Virus record (IMG/VR): IMGVR_UViG_3300044878_000031
Span: 1-64,000 of that record
Direction: 5' to 3' (one strand)
Length of the DNA stretch: 64,000 bases
From: a virus
Part shown: piece by piece, positions 44,281 through 50,885 of the stretch
How the letters are laid out: each line of letters begins with the position of its first letter
Numbering within the stretch: the stretch's first letter is position 1
Position numbers and translations under genes: made by a program
Notes under the pieces: generated by a model
The model's input: the letters and a program-made list of their open reading frames with translations, nothing else
The model's database searches: none
Told to the model about the DNA's origin: nothing

Positions 44281-44925
44281 CATAAAGAGACGAAGACTCG
44301 CTAACACGCCCATGAGTAGGAATGCTAACGAGTCTTGTCCACACCACACCGAAAGCCGCTTAGGAGAACGACTGAATGAAGCACACGAAATGCTTCCCCA
44401 AGTGCATTCAGACAAGAGTGGCCACTAATGACCCGAATGAACTTGAGGCTGCATTTAGACGCTTAGACCGACCACTCGAAAGCGCACGGTCCGACTATCT
44501 ACAACTTGTGCCCTTCGCGGGGACACCTTACCTTTTGGCTAACCTAATTCTTGCGAGGACTTAGGTCGGCACCTTACTACCCCGTTGTTATAAGGTATAG
44601 GTACAACAGGGCCTGGCCCTAACACGGGCGAGGATACACACAGGCGACAAGCCGCGCTCGCAGCGGCCGCCTTATCGTGTCAAGCTACCCTCTCTCTTAG
44701 AGTCGTCTACACTTACTGGTTGACCTTGAAGGGGACCTGATTTGGGGTTCTGTCCTAAAAGTAGTAACAGTTCCTACGACGAACAGGGGATTAGCCTGTG
44801 AGGGTACAACATGGGGTGAGCGGGAAAGCCGAAACCTTCCAGACAGTTAATGTCCGACGGGGAGGGACCTGTCCAAGAGCTGGGTAGATAAAGTCCAGCT
44901 CAAGACTTGCGATACGCTCACTTCT
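44281..44925 (-). ncRNA. Large (~640 nt) structured non-coding RNA, unknown family
   Basis: No credible ORF; many stems whose G-U pairs and UUCG/GCAA loops fit the minus strand. Confidence 0.65.
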
Positions 44926-44928
44926 GGT

Positions 44929-45381
44929 TTAACGGCCGCACCAAGATTGCTTGGTACCACCGTCGTACGCAACTGCTAGACCATTCTTGATCAACAGTTC
45001 CGCGATGTCAATGTCGTCCACCATTACCTTGGAGACGATGCGGAAGTACTTGTCGCGTTCAGGTTCAACCAGAGTGATCTGGGTGGCTGAGTCGATGTAC
45101 TTCTTCAGGAGTAGCCGGGCTTGACGTGCTTTGGCTTTCTCAGCTTCTTGGTCAGCGACTGCTTTACAAGTGCTGCGCATCTCGGGAGTATCAATCCCAG
45201 CCAGACGAATACCGATGTTCTTTCCGAAGAGGTCAGGAACCTCAGGGATGTTTACATAGATAGTGTCGCCGTCGTAAACCCGCACAACCTGTTTAGGTTT
45301 CAGGTTAAAGCCACCGAAGGCAAAGACGCTGAACGAAGCCAACATCAATACCAGTGTTGCAGCAATGTTTCTAACGTTCAT
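44929..45381 (-). CDS. Thermonuclease (SNase-like) with signal peptide
   Basis: VYDGDTI, IRLAGIDTPE, DKYFR, LIKNGLA; signal peptide MNVRNIAATLVLMLASFSVFA. Confidence 0.9.
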   Translation of the reverse strand: MNVRNIAATLVLMLASFSVFAFGGFNLKPKQVVRVYDGDTIYVNIPEVPDLFGKNIGIRLAGIDTPEMRSTCKAVADQEAEKAKARQARLLLKKYIDSATQITLVEPERDKYFRIVSKVMVDDIDIAELLIKNGLAVAYDGGTKQSWCGR

Positions 45382-45428
45382 ACGTAACTCCAAGTGATAT
45401 AGAACATAGTATCGCTTGGGGCGATGTA

Positions 45429-45515
45429 TGGTACCCGAAGCCGGGGTCGAACCGGCACGGCCTTTCAGCCATCGCATTTTAAGTGCGGTGCGTCTACCGA
45501 TTTCACCATTCGGGC
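45429..45515 (-). tRNA. tRNA-Leu(TAA)
   Basis: Cloverleaf, loop CTTAAAA, long variable arm, GTTCGAC, encoded CCA. Confidence 0.9.
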
Positions 45516-45602
45516 AAAAGGGTGCCTTCTCTCACGTCGGGACAGGGTTCTTTGTTTCCGGCGCAGATCCATCACTCATTGAGAGAGAAGACATAACAAC
45601 GT

Positions 45603-45693
45603 TGGGGGATCGACACGATAGGATTCGAACCTATGGACCGTAGCCAGCGCTTAGCGCTTGCCTTAAACCACTCAGCCACGCGTCGAAACCCCC
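45603..45693 (-). ncRNA. tRNA-like RNA with 3-nt anticodon loop
   Basis: D arm GCTGAGTGGTTTAAGGC, AGCGC-TAA-GCGCT, T arm ATAGG-TTCGAAT-CCTAT, 3' CCA. Confidence 0.7.
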
Positions 45694-45816
45694 AAACTCT
45701 GTGTACCACATTAGTCCTCCTAGTTCTGATTACCCTGCGCGTCAGGTCGGTCGTAACTAGGATGGGCGTGTACCGACGCCCCGTTTTACTTCTGTTCCCT
45801 AAGGAACCTTCTAATG

Positions 45817-45898
45817 TGCGGCCCTCGGCAAGATTCGAACTTGCGACCTTCACCGGACCGAAGTCCGACAACGTTCTAACCGACTGAACTACGAGGGC
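45817..45898 (-). ncRNA. tRNA-like RNA with anticodon loop replaced by a C(UUCG)G tetraloop
   Basis: Acceptor GCCCTCG/CGAGGGC, canonical D and T arms, 9-bp stem TTGTCGGAC-TTCG-GTCCGGTGA. Confidence 0.75.
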
Positions 45899-45906
45899 AT
45901 TACAAA

Positions 45907-45992
45907 TGGCGGAAGGATAGAGATTCGAACTCTAGGACCTGTTACAGTCGACGGTTTTCAAGACCGCTGCAATACCGCTATGCGACCCTTCC
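45907..45992 (-). tRNA. tRNA-Ser(TGA)
   Basis: Loop CTTGAAA, long variable arm, GCCA end. Confidence 0.9.
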
Positions 45993-46254
45993 GAAATCGA
46001 GCCGGGGCTTTCCCCGGAGTCACCACATAGCCAAGGCGGCGGCTATGAACCAATGGGAAACCCTGAGCAAGAGCCGATGGTACTCGGAGTCAGCAAGCTC
46101 ACCTCTATGGGGTACGAGATCTACGTGTATCGCTGTGTGAGCAACGATCCACTCCTTCGCAGGGGCAGGACACCAGGCAGGGCAGGCGCTTAGTGTTGGG
46201 CGGACCGTCTCGTTTATACTCGAGTACAGAAGCGCCTGAGGCGCGGTCCATAAA

Positions 46255-48655: not shown

Positions 48656-48669
48656 TGAAACTATGAATT

Positions 48670-48799
48670 TGGCCCCGAGGGGTGGACTCGAACCACCGAC
48701 CTCCCGCTGGCAAGCGTGTTTAAACGTTCTCGCCACGTTAGTAGCTATCAACGTAACCGCATGTCTAACGAGTGTTCTAACCGACTGAACTACCCAAGG
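48670..48799 (-). ncRNA. tRNA scaffold with a 60-nt insert in place of the anticodon loop
   Basis: Canonical D arm, CTCGT/GCGGG stem, AGGTC variable loop, GGTGG-TTCGAGT-CCACC, GCCA end. Confidence 0.75.
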
Positions 48800-48800
48800 G

Positions 48801-49048
48801 ATTGAAAGACTAACCGCTACCCCGACCTACGGAATGCAATACTCACTGTGACCTCTGGAGGAAAAGAAAGAAAACCCCAGAGCAACTCGGTATGCAATCG
48901 AGCCATGTAACACATTGAGTCGGGTCACGCTACTCCAACCGCAGAACACCGGAAGTCCGTCAAGTCCCAGTAGATTCCCCTTTCGCCGTGAAGCTAGAGG
49001 TCGTGCTGGAATCCCTGCTATCGGTCAGTAACGTGTAGGTCTCTCAAT
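48801..49048 (-). ncRNA. Structured ~250-nt ncRNA
   Basis: Closed by 10-bp ATTGAGAGAC/GTCTTTCAAT; nested stems; no ORF. Confidence 0.55.
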
Positions 49049-49128
49049 AGATCACTGGAGTATGTAAATTATTACGTAAACTCAGGCAAAAAAAAAGGCC
49101 CGGTGAAGGGCCCCATTGGAAAAGGGTG

Positions 49129-49542
49129 TTACGGAATCTCTGGGAAGCCCACGATCTTCAGGACTAGGTTACGCTTACGGCGATACCAACCAATGGATCT
49201 GGTAGGGTAGCCACGTTCCTCACTCTGCTTACGAATGGTCTCGTCATCTTCAAACAGCAGGGGGACTGGGAAGTATCTCCAGTGTTCTTGACTACCGTGC
49301 CTGACTAAGGCGTGGAGTGTACGCTTACTCCAATTGCCGGTGGTAATGCCTTCGATCAATTCTTGTTTGATTGCTTCGATGCACTCGGCTGCGTTGGAGG
49401 CGTTGAATAGATTGTTGTAGTGCGCAACAGTTGTACCTGACTCTTCGTCGTTAGCACGTTTCATGATGTATAGGACACCACCATTCTCATGCTTGGCAAT
49501 GTTACCGTTAGCGTAAGTGTGAGTGTGGTATTCGCGGGTCAT
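49129..49542 (-). CDS. Early hypothetical protein
   Basis: Start MTREY after CCTCAGAAGG leader; promoter at 49599. Confidence 0.7.
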   Translation of the reverse strand: MTREYHTHTYANGNIAKHENGGVLYIMKRANDEESGTTVAHYNNLFNASNAAECIEAIKQELIEGITTGNWSKRTLHALVRHGSQEHWRYFPVPLLFEDDETIRKQSEERGYPTRSIGWYRRKRNLVLKIVGFPEIP

Positions 49543-49598
49543 GGGTAATACCTTCTGAGGCCAATAGATTAGAGGGAGTTTGTAGCGTGTACACCAAA

Positions 49599-49606
49599 GT
49601 AATATA
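49599..49606 (-). promoter_or_regulatory. Early promoter TATATTAC
   Basis: TTTCAGATA-TATATTAC-TTTG-GTGT. Confidence 0.7.
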
Positions 49607-49671
49607 TATCTGAAACTTCTTTGATTCAACCCCGAATAGAATGAAGGGTTATTTTACTTTGGGGTGTTCTA

Positions 49672-50289
49672 ATGAACCGTTTGCAGGAACTGGTACAGAT
49701 CGGGGAACTCGATCTAACCTACAGTCCTGAGGGGCTGGAGATGATGGAGGAGGCTTCTGCTGAAGTCCCTTCCAAGACGATCTACATATTGCTTACCGAT
49801 ACCAAGACTCTGGTCAGTAAGGTTAGCCGTATGGTTACAGGTGATCCGTACAACCACGTGTCGCTGATGCTGTCTGATGACTTCGATGATGGTATCTATA
49901 CCTTCAGTCTGGGGAACGGCGTCAACGGCATTAAGGGTGGCTTCATGGTGGAGGATCGTGCAAACCTGAAAGGGTCTCACTACTCCATGTACAAGATGGG
50001 AGTCACCTCTGACGCGTACGACAAGATCAAGACTCGAATCACTGACTACGTCAAGGGTATCGAGAAAACGTCATACAACCATCTGGGGTTGTTTAACGCG
50101 ATCTTCAAGAAGAACATCTTTAAGACCGAGGATGGCCAAACTTCGATCTGTTCTGAGTTCGTCGTTGAAGTCCTGAAGTTCTCCGGCGTAGAACTCTTCG
50201 CCAAAAGATTCGCCAGCTCTGTAAGACCTTACGAGTTGATCAAATCGAAACTGTTGAAGTTCCACCGTCGTGGCGTCATAAAACCCTAA
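49672..50289 (+). CDS. Permuted papain-like NlpC/P60 (YaeF/YiiX-type) peptidase/amidase
   Basis: YNHVSL (His) precedes ICSEFV (Cys); YN...RPYEL. Confidence 0.8.
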   Translation: MNRLQELVQIGELDLTYSPEGLEMMEEASAEVPSKTIYILLTDTKTLVSKVSRMVTGDPYNHVSLMLSDDFDDGIYTFSLGNGVNGIKGGFMVEDRANLKGSHYSMYKMGVTSDAYDKIKTRITDYVKGIEKTSYNHLGLFNAIFKKNIFKTEDGQTSICSEFVVEVLKFSGVELFAKRFASSVRPYELIKSKLLKFHRRGVIKP

Positions 50290-50329
50290 GTCTAGACCGG
50301 CTCACTTAGGTGGGTCGGTTTATGGCGGC

Positions 50330-50885
50330 ATAAAAGCGCGGCTCGAGGGAATCTCGAACCTACTCCAGAACTTTCACAGCCCGGTAGGGCAGGAGCGTCT
50401 GTTTCGCGTTGGAATCCCTGCGGCTTTGCTTTTATGTTTTCTTACTGTCAAACACGTTGGCTTTTTGTGGCTGTGATCGTCTTCTTTCCAAGGCCTTGGT
50501 AAGTGTTGCCTTAGATCCACACTAGCTCAGGTACACCCTTTACGTGCTCCGGCCTCACACTGAGGCTCTATCAACATTTGAATGCTCGTGAACCTCTAAG
50601 CGCTATAAGGTGGCCAAGAGGTATGCTTGCCCGGCCCTTTGCCGAGTGCATTACCACCGTGCCACTTATTGATGGGCTTAGAAAGGCGCAAGGCTATTGA
50701 TTGTGGTTTGCCGGAATCTCTCCCTATGTCGGGTATCAAACTGAACACGAGCAAGTGCGTCAGTCTGAAAAGTGCGAACACTCTAACCCAACTAGAAATC
50801 CCCAACCAAAGCCAGTTCTTCAACTCTTCTGTCACGGTGTGCGCGTTAACCGTTGGACTTTCAGTCATCAGATTATACTGGAGGT
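50330..50885 (-). ncRNA. Structured non-coding region, probably ncRNA(s)
   Basis: No credible ORF; hairpins such as AGAGTG-TTCG-CACTTT and CTCGGC/GCCGGG with G-U pairs on the minus strand. Confidence 0.45.

Follow-up and report, generated by a model that had tools for sequence, protein, structure and literature searches.

A tRNA array with non-decoding tRNA mimics and covarying structured RNAs in a nucleus-forming jumbo phage

The tRNA precursors of phage T4 include the species 1 and 2 RNAs, and those T4 tRNAs that lack CCA require RNase BN and the host CCA-adding enzyme. The closest precedent for the locus described here is the tRNA region of phage T5, where "stable RNAs with unknown functions" are annotated; the T5 record lists eight of these within the tRNA cluster, of which three are tRNA-like. 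GOLLD and ROOL RNAs are also described as 'often near tRNA islands' (10.1101/2024.12.08.627333). The present locus lies within a window of 64,000 nt (positions 1–64,000 of IMG/VR record IMGVR_UViG_3300044878_000031; coordinates below are those of the window, and features are on the minus strand unless stated otherwise). Since the T5 annotation already shows tRNA clusters with tRNA-like stable RNAs, the general design is known, while the RNA families are new. We interpret the locus as a phage tRNA operon (about 49.05 kb to 44.2 kb) that may also express trans-acting structured RNAs, and assign this reading a probability of roughly 0.6.

An earlier note, made from the sequence, had attributed the DNA to a nucleus-forming phage, and the gene content agrees: PhuZ, split beta subunits of RNA polymerase and a match to the nuclear shell protein (phrog_4795, E 2e-111) identify a nucleus-forming jumbo phage. 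The same note took nt 44281–50885 to be one polycistronic cassette, which is contradicted by the features found between RNA A, at the 3' end of the phuZ operon, and the tRNA/ncRNA array (about nt 49050 to 44200). These are a convergent ORF on the plus strand (nt 49672–50289), a promoter-like site, TATATTAC (nt 49599–49606), the 137-aa ORF that it precedes (nt 49129–49542), and after this ORF a strong intrinsic terminator (nt 49095–49114), consisting of a 7-bp GC-rich stem followed by T8. The region thus comprises more than one cassette and, because the convergent gene, the promoter-like site and the terminator intervene, RNA A (nt 50290–50885) is a separate structured RNA and a separate transcription unit from the array. 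The motif TATATTAY is present 7 times in the window, where 0.79 occurrences would be expected. The 12-mer ATCTATTGAGAG (nt 49041–49052) has two exact copies, both intergenic and on the minus strand, the second of which (nt 52444–52455) precedes the phuZ start by about 55 nt. It is kept in relatives at the 5' end of RNA B, and we infer that it is the candidate promoter or start of the array, an assignment that depends on this one shared 12-mer. It is the lone start-motif candidate, lies downstream of the strong terminator, and is followed by units that abut one another, all on one strand.

Five protein genes are embedded in the array. A small protein gene with no assigned function (nt 47841–48104; phrog_9138, E 6e-29), the stop codon of which falls within the first bases of tRNA-Asp, is carried by 20 related loci, mostly within tRNA arrays. 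A 212-aa protein (nt 46852–47490) has a predicted N-terminal Tad2-like (DUF2829) domain, matching PF11195 over residues 1–86 (E 9.4e-22) as well as phrog_1048, and is flanked on either side by small ORFs (nt 47501–47662 and 46660–46842). The gene at nt 44929–45381 encodes a 150-aa secreted-type nuclease of the SNase family (PF00565, E 1.9e-11; phrog_452 endonuclease), so that domain matches confirm both the Tad2-like gene and the nuclease proposed from the sequence.

ARAGORN predicted 10 tRNA genes and Rfam model RF00005 added one more; all 11 lie on the minus strand from nt 45429 to 48799. Together with the folds, they bear out the initial count of seven normal tRNAs and five tRNA-shaped RNAs that do not decode. 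The seven canonical tRNAs, found by ARAGORN and Rfam, each have a 7-nt anticodon loop and an encoded CCA: tRNA-Tyr (GUA, nt 48299–48384), tRNA-Asp (GUC, nt 47774–47850), tRNA-Ser (GCU, nt 47679–47766), tRNA-Asn (GUU, nt 46577–46651), tRNA-Ser (GGA, nt 46255–46342), tRNA-Ser (UGA, nt 45907–45992) and tRNA-Leu (UAA, nt 45429–45515).

The five remaining bodies (X, C5, 'Val-CAC', U and Y) have no usable anticodon loop and cannot decode. Mimic X (nt 48673–48799; RF00005 35.9 bits over 127 nt) folds with intact acceptor, D and T arms and a structure of about 60 nt in place of the anticodon loop, and is paralogous to the tRNA-like RNA that precedes RNA G in contigs L009, L010, L012 and L035. The tRNA-derived element C5 (approximately nt 48517–48655), recognised by its fold and by comparison with L009, L010 and L012, has a foreign core of about 95 nt, an acceptor-like helix and a degenerate T-like arm; its homologue in those three contigs is a tRNA-like RNA in which the same core is enclosed by a D arm and a canonical T arm, the insert being about 100 nt. 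The 'Val-CAC' mimic (nt 46503–46571) folds with a 5-nt loop on an anticodon stem of 6–7 bp, lacks CCA and continues straight into RNA E; it is identical in L010 and changed in L012 and L011. Mimic U (nt 45820–45898; RF00005 49.7 bits) has textbook acceptor, D and T arms, but a UUCG loop caps its anticodon arm, to which ARAGORN gives a 2-base 'anticodon'. It has no CCA and forms the front half of a two-part U+G RNA. Mimic Y (nt 45607–45686; RF00005 39.7 bits) folds as a class-II-like body whose anticodon arm retains just a 5-bp stem and 3-nt loop, and its acceptor is lengthened by an outer GGGGG/CCCCC helix (nt 45600–45700); L011 keeps this design with compensatory changes in both the hairpin and the outer helix. 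Such changes preserve mimics U, X and Y among the relatives. Four of the five mimics stand directly 5' of a folded non-tRNA domain (C5/C-core, Val-like/E, U/G and Y/H), and X precedes another mimic.

In the operon reading, it is inferred that the array is transcribed together, that tRNA enzymes process the transcript and that the RNAs act in trans. The array transcript would be punctuated by the seven decoding tRNAs and five non-decoding bodies, which the tRNA maturation enzymes of the host would use as cleavage points. RNase P would make the 5' cut at every tRNA-shaped unit, the 3' ends would fall to RNase E, RNase Z/BN or exonucleases, and discrete, stable RNAs would be freed. The mimics would then be built-in handles for processing and stabilisation. 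Release by such enzymes is likely, judged from the arrangement of the locus, and is plausible because the elements abut, lie on one strand behind a single start motif and have precedent in T4 and T5. That dedicated non-decoding bodies persist, though ordinary tRNAs could serve processing, hints at an additional role.

About 10 ORF-free stretches were counted between the tRNA units, close to the nine or so first noticed; those designated A, B, C, D, E, F, G, H and I span 91–790 nt. They recur in six related phage contigs, with 57–79% identity in 4–6 contigs, and conservation was seen in L009–L014 and L035. Most indels in these stretches break the multiple-of-three pattern that the neighbouring genes follow almost without exception. 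Covariation was assessed against column shuffles, slid pairing partners, the opposite strand and coding controls from the same locus. Most island RNAs are represented by 5–7 related sequences only, and the counts of compensatory pairs are inflated to the extent that RNAalifold picks structures maximising covariation. Genes gave 0.6–6.8 compensatory pairs per 100 columns, against 7.2–10.3 for the 5' half of A, B, C, E, I1 and I2; these six and G are clearly above the coding controls, D and F are intermediate, and H, I3 and the 3' half of A are inseparable from them. The earlier note had named covariation and Rfam beforehand as checks: covariation is present, and the elements do not all belong to known families, tRNA being the only Rfam 15 family that the island RNAs matched. 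At the level of sequence comparison, the island RNAs are shown to exist as conserved, covarying predicted structures.

It is hardly credible, therefore, that the mimics are decaying tRNA pseudogenes and the spacers neutral filler. Phage tRNA clusters do turn over fast, and the tRNA complement varies among the relatives, as decay would have it. The covariation results contradict this explanation, as compensatory changes maintain the stems of mimics and spacers alike, and RNA G is better conserved than its flanking genes across distant phages. The view that selection, not decay, acts on minus-strand structured spacers is accordingly upheld by strong covariation among relatives for most of them.

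RNA A, a structured non-coding stretch of about 600 nt conserved in L009–L012 and L014, ends at a terminator-like hairpin (nt 50340–50360). Its consensus fold has z = -12.9 against column shuffles, with 33 compensatory pairs compared to 4–7 for slid partners. Of its 87 gaps, 16 have a length divisible by 3, and compensatory pairs number 7.2 per 100 columns in the 5' half and 4.7 in the 3' half. RNA B (nt 48800–49088), the structured leader RNA of the array, shows compensation in 28 of 74 pairs among six sequences (4–10 when slid; z = -9.9; 8.9 per 100 columns), and 2 of 40 gaps are multiples of 3. Directly upstream of tRNA-Tyr is the C-core (nt 48390–48505), a highly conserved multi-helix RNA with helices in alignment columns 170–287, many pairs of which are compensatory; element C overall has 26 compensatory pairs compared to 4–7 slid. 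The C-core is restricted to this clade, since the real ones among 47 matches to its 15-mer are confined to 5 related contigs. RNA E (nt 46343–46502), also clade-specific, is a 160-nt multi-helix RNA with a closing helix of 8+9 bp, in which 12 of 36 pairs are compensatory and 98% of cells paired over six sequences, values reached by none of 500 shuffles; slid partners give 0–2. RNA I (nt 44380–44928) is large and ornate, ends the array and had no match in the Rfam search. Its I1 part (nt 44680–44928; 7 sequences, 79% identity) has 27 compensatory pairs compared to 1–5 slid, or 10.3 per 100 columns against 2.2 in the adjacent SNase gene (80% identity), and I2 (nt 44380–44680) has 29 compared to 6–10 slid, or 9.3 per 100 columns.

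Support is moderate for spacers D and F. Spacer D (nt 48105–48298), either a structured RNA or the 5' leader of the phrog_9138 gene, has z = -8.9 and 19 compensatory pairs (4–6 slid), its 6.1 per 100 columns being within the top of the coding-control range. Spacer F (nt 45993–46254) is conserved and more divergent (z = -4.2; 19 compensatory pairs compared to 3–6 slid; 6.6 per 100 columns), and its fold comparison showed no strand preference. Spacer H (nt 45516–45606) is a short hairpin RNA conserved in 7 sequences with weak covariation (3 compensatory pairs, 3.0 per 100 columns), and I3 (nt 44139–44379) comprises the array tail and the promoter-like site of the next gene, TATATTAT (nt 44172–44179). 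Because the array holds five protein genes, some of these stretches (D, H, I3 and the 3' half of A) may belong to mRNAs, as leaders or trailers, and not be free RNAs.

RNA G (nt 45707–45819) begins 1 nt past the discriminator base of mimic U. Its elements are, in order, P1, P2, the junction AGAAnUAAAACG, P3, P4, P5, GGUAAUCAG, P4', GGGAAC and P1'. Rfam was unmatched even with a 146-nt query, while a covariance model scores this copy at 134.8 bits. Among 20 distinct copies of the family, 17 of 28 pairs are compensatory and 98.4% of cells are paired; none of 500 shuffles attains this, and 3–7 compensatory pairs are left when the partners are slid. The family is widespread: it occurs in jumbo phages, in Pseudomonas phages D6 and Psa21, in lambdoid E. 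coli phages and in phages of 42–58 kb, where G lies between genes for lysis and terminase. A circularly permuted G, found for instance in the E. coli phages CUS-3, IME10 and Huey, occupies the anticodon-arm position of a tRNA-Leu-like body, and P4 covaries. The G core comes either appended to a tRNA-like module or permuted inside a tRNA-Leu-like body. As the family is also found in 42–58 kb and lambdoid E. coli phages, a role specific to the phage nucleus, one of those first suggested for these RNAs, is unlikely for G; its presence in culturable phages means that the job of G is now open to experiment.

The spread of G also bears on whether the elements act only in cis, adjusting the maturation and stability of the tRNAs and embedded genes as processing signals, nuclease barriers, attenuators or mRNA leaders. 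The weak covariation of D, H, I3 and the 3' half of A next to ORFs, and the terminator-like hairpin that ends A, are what such elements would look like. Yet G scores above 130 bits in phages that otherwise share only tRNAs nearby, accompanies a mimic without any other tRNA in L038, L041, L045 and L052, and exists in permuted form; its conservation, stand-alone loci and permutation speak for a fold that is self-contained and has a function of its own. E, the C-core and I1 are, moreover, multi-helix junctions rather than simple hairpins, and a purely cis-acting array is unlikely.

Natural circular permutation is typical of small self-cleaving ribozymes. Permuted non-coding RNAs are the subject of a review (PMC10085705). 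The permuted G core, and the start of G 1 nt past the mimic, where a 5'-cleaving ribozyme would act, could indicate that the non-tRNA domains are such ribozymes or self-processing modules that free themselves and the adjacent tRNA bodies. However, the hammerhead, twister, pistol, hatchet and HDV-like models of Rfam were unmatched, host enzymes suffice for these cuts, and cleavage of a permuted core inside a tRNA body would destroy its scaffold, all of which makes this quite improbable.

The permuted copies have a tRNA-Leu-like D arm and a regular 7-bp acceptor, with discriminator A in four of five inspected by eye (L151, L165, L119 and L159) and apparently also in L209. LeuRS, SerRS and AlaRS do not read the anticodon. 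These features, and the class-II body of Y, would suit mimics that are charged without decoding, supplying amino acids for non-ribosomal reactions or titrating synthetases, EF-Tu or tRNA-modifying enzymes. We consider this very improbable, as U, the Val-like mimic and the permuted copies have no encoded CCA and are continuous with other RNA, and a CCA-adding enzyme was not found on the 112-kb contig, an incomplete genome.

A possible, if doubtful, alternative, in line with the functional guess of the earlier note, is an RNA-based counter-defence in which the mimics and their fused domains are decoys or sponges for host immunity, directed at tRNA-targeting nucleases or immune signalling nucleotides, as an RNA counterpart of the Tad1, Tad2 and Acb2 proteins. 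The array holds a putative Tad2-like gene and a nuclease; that domain is common in phages, though, and its adjacency to G is not kept outside the clade. Jumbo relatives retain tRNAs for His, Asp, Tyr and Asn beside G, which we take to be the GUN-anticodon set cut by colicin E5-type anticodon nucleases, but for nucleases that read the anticodon loop, an RNA that has none makes a poor decoy. The lysis–terminase location of G in the small phages is a typical accessory-gene ('moron') site. Its invariant single-stranded junctions look like a pocket for a ligand or protein; Rfam, on the other hand, gives no match to a known cyclic-nucleotide riboswitch aptamer. Under the operon reading with trans-acting RNAs, these junction nucleotides, invariant in phages that infect Pseudomonas, E. 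coli or other hosts, suggest that G has a specific and widely conserved partner, which would be a host factor or a small ligand.

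Judging by its gene content, the window belongs to a phiKZ-like, nucleus-forming jumbo phage, as it encodes a PhuZ tubulin (51414–52388), the nuclear shell protein phrog_4795 (34036–36084, E 2e-111) and split RNA polymerase beta subunits. It covers the initial 64 kb of an IMG/VR contig of 112 kb, whose completeness is put at 41%. Among 50,697 GenBank phages there was no close DNA relative covering the island (44281–50885, minus strand) as a whole. The Tad2-like gene and the nuclease that the earlier note had placed in the island are both there: the first encodes a 212-aa protein with an N-terminal Tad2-like domain (46852–47490), the second a member of the SNase family (44929–45381). 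The island also carries the gene for a small phrog_9138 protein (47841–48104) and two further small ORFs. Genes for TROVE (Rsr; PF05731), RtcB or a CCA-adding enzyme were not found on the 112-kb contig of this roughly 41% complete genome.

ARAGORN predicts 10 tRNA genes on the minus strand between 45429 and 48799, and Rfam adds an eleventh. These 11 units score 35.9–69.5 bits against RF00005 (gathering threshold 29), and C5, a further tRNA-shaped body, is below detection. Together with inspection of the loops, this gives exactly the seven normal tRNAs and five non-decoding tRNA-shaped RNAs that had been counted by eye. The former (Tyr-GUA, Asp-GUC, Ser-GCU, Asn-GUU, Ser-GGA, Ser-UGA and Leu-UAA) all have an encoded CCA and an anticodon loop of 7 nt, in which three nucleotides can be presented as the anticodon; such a loop is absent from the other five, all on the minus strand. 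In X (48673–48799), about 60 nt replace the anticodon loop, while C5 (approximately 48517–48655) is a tRNA-like RNA that has a canonical T arm in three related phage contigs (L009, L010 and L012). The unit called as 'Val-CAC' (46503–46571) has a 5-nt loop and no CCA, the anticodon arm of U (45820–45898) is capped by UUCG, and Y (45607–45686) has a 3-nt loop and an extra outer helix. Another relative, L011, keeps the design of Y, its small hairpin and its outer helix each showing compensatory changes. No tmRNA (a tRNA-like domain with a tag reading frame) was found by ARAGORN or Rfam. A group I intron in the anticodon loop, for which a conserved P3–P9 catalytic core (Rfam model), an insert of about 200 nt or more and a normal loop after removal would be expected, was also considered and rejected: there is no Rfam match, the inserts are only about 60–150 nt, and the flanks restore no U33-containing loop.

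The ORF-free spacers (A to I) were compared across related loci, of which 21 were retrieved by way of the phrog_9138 protein and PhuZ. In six of these (L009–L012, L014 and L035) the spacers are conserved at 57–79% identity. The consensus fold of every spacer is much more stable than those of column-shuffled alignments (z −4.2 to −12.9), compensatory pairs exceed the counts obtained with slid partners, and the minus strand folds better than its complement for A, B, C, D, I1 and I2 (the last two being segments of I). Because RNAalifold itself seeks covariation, genes from the same loci, with the same phylogeny, were added as coding controls, and these give 0.6–6.8 compensatory pairs per 100 columns. 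Values for I1 (10.3), I2 (9.3), B (8.9), C (8.8), E (7.7) and the 5' half of A (7.2) lie above this range, so that the proposal of heavily base-paired RNAs under selection holds for these six. Elements D (6.1) and F (6.6) are intermediate, and the covariation of the 3' half of A (4.7), I3 (4.6) and H (3.0) is not separable from that of the controls. A direct comparison is provided by I1, at 79% identity, and the adjacent SNase gene, at 80%, with 10.3 vs 2.2 compensatory pairs per 100 columns. Hidden coding is excluded by the indels: their lengths are divisible by three in the genes, whereas most of those in the spacers are not. For the same reason, and for want of a family match, an ORF overlapping A (50596–50991) was taken as non-coding. 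Direct pair counts for E show 98% of the cells of 36 pairs paired and 12 pairs compensatory, values reached by none of 500 shuffles (slid partners, 0–2).

None of the elements matched any Rfam 15 family other than tRNA, even at E values up to 5, whether the window, the island or element G alone was searched, and 18 related loci likewise returned tRNA only. This includes GOLLD, ROOL, Y RNA and tmRNA, and the structured RNAs stand outside the Rfam families. No self-cleaving ribozyme or riboswitch aptamer was matched in Rfam, the only hit being mir-228 at E 7.4, which is at chance level. Outside the island, an exact-pattern scan for the core of E recovered the same clade only. A 15-mer scan for the core of C gave 47 matches, of which those in five related contigs were genuine and the remainder were chance matches in coding DNA. 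Elements I and A were also found only in this clade.

The reading of the 6.6 kb as one cassette was not borne out, since RNA A is separated from the tRNA array by a convergent ORF, a promoter-like site and a terminator. RNA A (50290–50885) follows the phuZ operon and has a terminator-like hairpin at its end. After it come, in order, the convergent plus-strand ORF (49672–50289), a TATATTAC site (49599–49606), a 137-aa ORF and a strong terminator (49095–49114), just past which the array proper begins. The plus-strand ORF is alone between minus-strand units, is kept in the relatives, and has a weak match to phrog_1128 (enoyl-CoA hydratase/ClpP-like fold, E 4e-10). The motif TATATTAY, which we take to resemble the early-promoter core of phiKZ, occurs seven times in the window (at 6245, 9283, 22002, 37478 on the plus strand, 44172, 49599 and 58408) vs 0.79 expected, and two of the copies flank the tRNA array. 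WWWWWTACATR and TTACGTAWTA, examined as promoter motifs, were not enriched. A 12-mer, ATCTATTGAGAG, has identical minus-strand copies at the head of the array (49041–49052) and about 55 nt upstream of the phuZ start (52444–52455), and is kept at the 5' end of B in relatives. It could serve as a promoter of middle or late genes or mark a transcript start, and for the array we infer a start signal.

Stable RNAs within phage tRNA clusters have been known for a long time. The tRNA cluster of T4 encodes just two, the species 1 and 2 RNAs (rnaC and rnaD), which are co-transcribed with the tRNAs and freed by tRNA-processing enzymes; some CCA-less T4 units need RNase BN and CCA addition. We know of no sequence relation between these RNAs and those of the island. 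The closest precedent for the array is the tRNA region of T5, whose record (NC_005859) has eight entries of 'stable RNA with unknown functions' interspersed with the tRNA genes. They are RNAI, RNAIII, RNAIV, RNA2H, the three tRNA-like RNA1, RNA2 and RNA3, and RNAX, of 719 nt, which abuts tRNA-Arg. Like the island, T5 has its tRNA genes clustered on one strand, interleaved with small ORFs, genes for nucleases, stable RNAs of tRNA-like form and, beside a tRNA, one RNA of very large size, and its RNA1, in which an expanded middle is flanked by a tRNA-Leu-like D arm and by a T arm, has the design of mimic X and of the permuted G family described below. However, no T5 RNA showed similarity to any element of the window by nhmmer or covariance model, the T5 RNAs are without the core motifs of G, and T5 is neither a jumbo nor a nucleus-forming phage. 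The island contains non-tRNA and tRNA-like RNA genes within a phage tRNA cluster, on the same strand, a type (that of T5 and T4) defined by context and not by sequence.

Other systems offer partial parallels. GOLLD (RF01998) and ROOL (RF03087) are large ornate RNAs of phages and prophages, 'often near tRNA islands' and of unexplained function (10.1101/2024.12.08.627333). Elements I (about 550–790 nt) and A (about 600 nt) are like them in size and context, but covariance models of GOLLD, ROOL, OLE and raiA gave no match at E up to 5 across 43500–51500. YrlA (RF02553), a bacterial and phage Y RNA that mimics tRNA, also joins a non-decoding tRNA-like module to a second structured module. It differs in that its ends form a Ro-binding helix, whereas the core of G is a multi-helix junction, and in that its gene adjoins rsr, a neighbour absent from the 112-kb contig of the approximately 41% complete genome. 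The YrlA model scored at best 21.7 bits (gathering score 69), on an ordinary Asn/Val-like tRNA pair and not on U and G. Giant phages are known to have sRNAs, and that of phage 201phi2-1 includes a case immediately upstream of a tRNA (PMC11512511); another study reports a catalogue of 8,495 unnamed candidate viral RNAs (PMC10690425), to which G may belong. In the papers that were read after full-text searches, neither the island nor the G family is described.

Element G (45707–45819) starts one nucleotide past the discriminator base of U, directly 3' of this non-decoding tRNA-like module. It has five helices (P1–P5) and invariant junctions AGAAnUAAAACG, GGUAAUCAG and GGGAAC. A 22-nt pattern derived from G recovered 23 IMG/VR stretches. 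From 20 distinct copies a five-helix structure was obtained in which 17 of 28 pairs are compensatory and 98.4% of cells are paired, values reached in 0 of 500 shuffles. The window copy scores 134.8 bits against the covariance model R1, having itself been in the seed alignment, and an independent copy in phage D6 scores 139.2 bits. The covariance model finds one copy on the whole 112-kb contig and a single copy in most loci, two in L033 and none in L011 or L014. The two copies in L033, a 310-kb phage, lie in the same tRNA array (2645–2782 and 3236–3373; 143 and 116 bits). Of the 20 distinct copies with enough upstream sequence, 18 have G immediately 3' of a tRNA-like module that bears a T arm and whose anticodon region is aberrant or expanded; in L034 the module is ambiguous, and the unit upstream of G in L037 is called tRNA-Ile (UAU) by ARAGORN. 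At the DNA level, all that distant jumbo relatives have in common with the island are tRNAs, phrog_9138 and G. Seven jumbo relatives (L020, L021, L028, L048, L050, L051 and L103, the last being D6) each retain three or four members of the tRNA set His, Asp, Tyr and Asn, always with His and Asn, all with GUN anticodons, and the mimic and G lie inside this group, usually right before tRNA-Asn.

The family is not confined to large phages. In four contigs of 42–58 kb (L038, L041, L045 and L052) the mimic and G occur without any other tRNA, and in L052 and L038 the pair lies between lysis genes and an HNH/terminase module. This occurrence in small phages makes a role tied to the phage nucleus, one of the possibilities raised in the earlier note, unlikely for G. 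What the note observed is confirmed overall, and its interpretation is supported in part. Among cultured phages, Pseudomonas phages D6 and Psa21 carry G, the D6 copy adjoining a 'tRNA-OTHER' feature. The exact pattern had one match in 185,579 bacterial and archaeal genomes, and at this stringency the family is therefore essentially viral. Two other interpretations of the G region were dropped. A 26-aa micro-ORF (AGGAGG-N4-ATG) over the end of G and Y was rejected as a gene because its 'Shine-Dalgarno' and ATG are the P4', junction and P1' strands of G, and because relatives lack Y and have a stop in this frame after two codons. A likeness of the G junctions to the L11-binding region of 23S rRNA was set aside, as only GAAGG and GUAAU are conserved, in junctions and not in hairpin loops. 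In element E (46343–46502) a hairpin comes after UUAAAAACG and a strand of the closing helix after GGGUAAU, two words that resemble the junctions of G, and through them E is possibly a distant relative.

The sub-motif GAAnUAAAACG with the P3 hairpin, present in 81 of 132 matches, extends to many more phage contigs than the G pattern. By our estimate more than 100 chance matches to the bare 16-mer GAAVTAAAACGRGGCG are expected in IMG/VR, and only copies with the hairpin were counted. In most of these copies the elements run in a different order: an acceptor 5' strand, a tRNA-Leu-like D arm, UAAUCAG, the P4 3' strand, GAGAAC and a variable domain, and then AAGUAAAACG, P3, AU, the P4 5' strand, a T arm and the acceptor 3' strand. 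The core of G is thus circularly permuted and, as read from the order of its parts, occupies the anticodon-arm position of a tRNA body; it is found in at least two orders. P4 is maintained by covariation in the permuted form, with seven perfect pairs in 9 of 18 distinct copies, in seven different sequences, and a mean of 5.28 pairs vs 3.84 for permuted partners (maximum 4.67 in 1000 permutations). RNAalifold on six permuted copies found 20 of 39 pairs compensatory, and 12 permuted-form loci had no Rfam match. In E. coli phage CUS-3 the permuted form occupies the gap that separates the Q antiterminator gene from the holin gene; this non-coding gap of the P22-like phage (1380–1600 of L104) is annotated only with 'boundary sequences'. 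In IME10 and Huey the RNA is unannotated or under a 'hypothetical protein' feature. In five aligned copies (L151, L165, L183, L209 and L123), the strand after GAGAA can pair with either of two near-identical downstream segments, both of which covary; this could be an RNA switch or a duplication. Yet another arrangement is seen in L185 (about 2283, minus strand), where P2, junction, P3 and P5 of G, lacking GGUAAUCAG, lead into a T arm and then an acceptor strand with CCA at its end.

Given the T5 precedent and the occurrence of GOLLD and ROOL near tRNA islands, we read the array as a tRNA operon that would double as an expression and processing platform. Beyond the structures and family relations, which the comparisons show, this reading holds that the array would be co-transcribed and then cut at each of its tRNA-shaped units by RNase P and 3'-end enzymes of the host, and that the folded RNAs so released would act in trans, with the non-decoding bodies serving as dedicated handles or scaffolds for a fused domain. 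The tRNA module is joined to the core at different points in the two forms, which fits a generic handle better than a fixed geometry. Comparable designs are engineered tRNA scaffolds and the MALAT1-mascRNA type of handle, in which a tRNA body recruits cellular tRNA enzymes to define the termini of an unrelated RNA domain and make it stable; the permuted family has its cargo precisely where the anticodon arm would be. The engineered scaffolds are artificial and MALAT1-mascRNA is a eukaryotic nuclear lncRNA, whereas the island design is natural, phage-encoded and recurrent.

The invariant junction nucleotides of G, across phages of different hosts, suggest one conserved partner. We would give about one chance in five to the G superfamily being a natural 'tRNA-scaffolded aptamer', carried on non-decoding bodies and capturing a universal host molecule, with the island a toolbox of such RNAs. 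Its pocket would be compact, kept through circular permutation and expressed by phages of many hosts, and it might bind a nucleotide of immune signalling, a nuclease directed at tRNA, or a factor of translation or RNA processing. If so, it would be the first RNA-only counter-defence or host-takeover module of such design. Putative roles as decoy, sponge, ribozyme or chargeable mimic are also possible. Should any of the decoy, sponge or scaffolded-aptamer readings prove right, phage-host conflict would gain a layer made of RNA, and natural designs for RNA expression scaffolds would become available.

An arrangement of this kind has precedents in T5 and T4; new versions of it are seen here in the RNA families, in the five remodelled tRNA bodies and in the G family with its permuted form embedded in tRNA. 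The stable RNAs of the T4 and T5 clusters have gone unexplained for decades, and nucleus-forming jumbo phages present a much richer case: beside the remodelled bodies, the island has structured RNAs of which seven are well supported, none of these seven being in Rfam and five being confined to the clade. The G family, with its permuted forms, is widespread across phage types and hosts, and its function is directly testable in the culturable Pseudomonas phages D6 and Psa21 and E. coli phages CUS-3, IME10 and Huey.

A smaller feature of the array concerns the phrog_9138 gene, whose stop codon lies within the first bases of tRNA-Asp (47841–47850, minus strand), so that an RNase P cut would leave a non-stop mRNA. 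In the closest relatives (L010, L011, L012 and L014) the end of the homologue likewise overlaps the beginning of a tRNA gene, and in L013, L015 and L017 a tRNA gene begins at its end or within about 15 nt of it.
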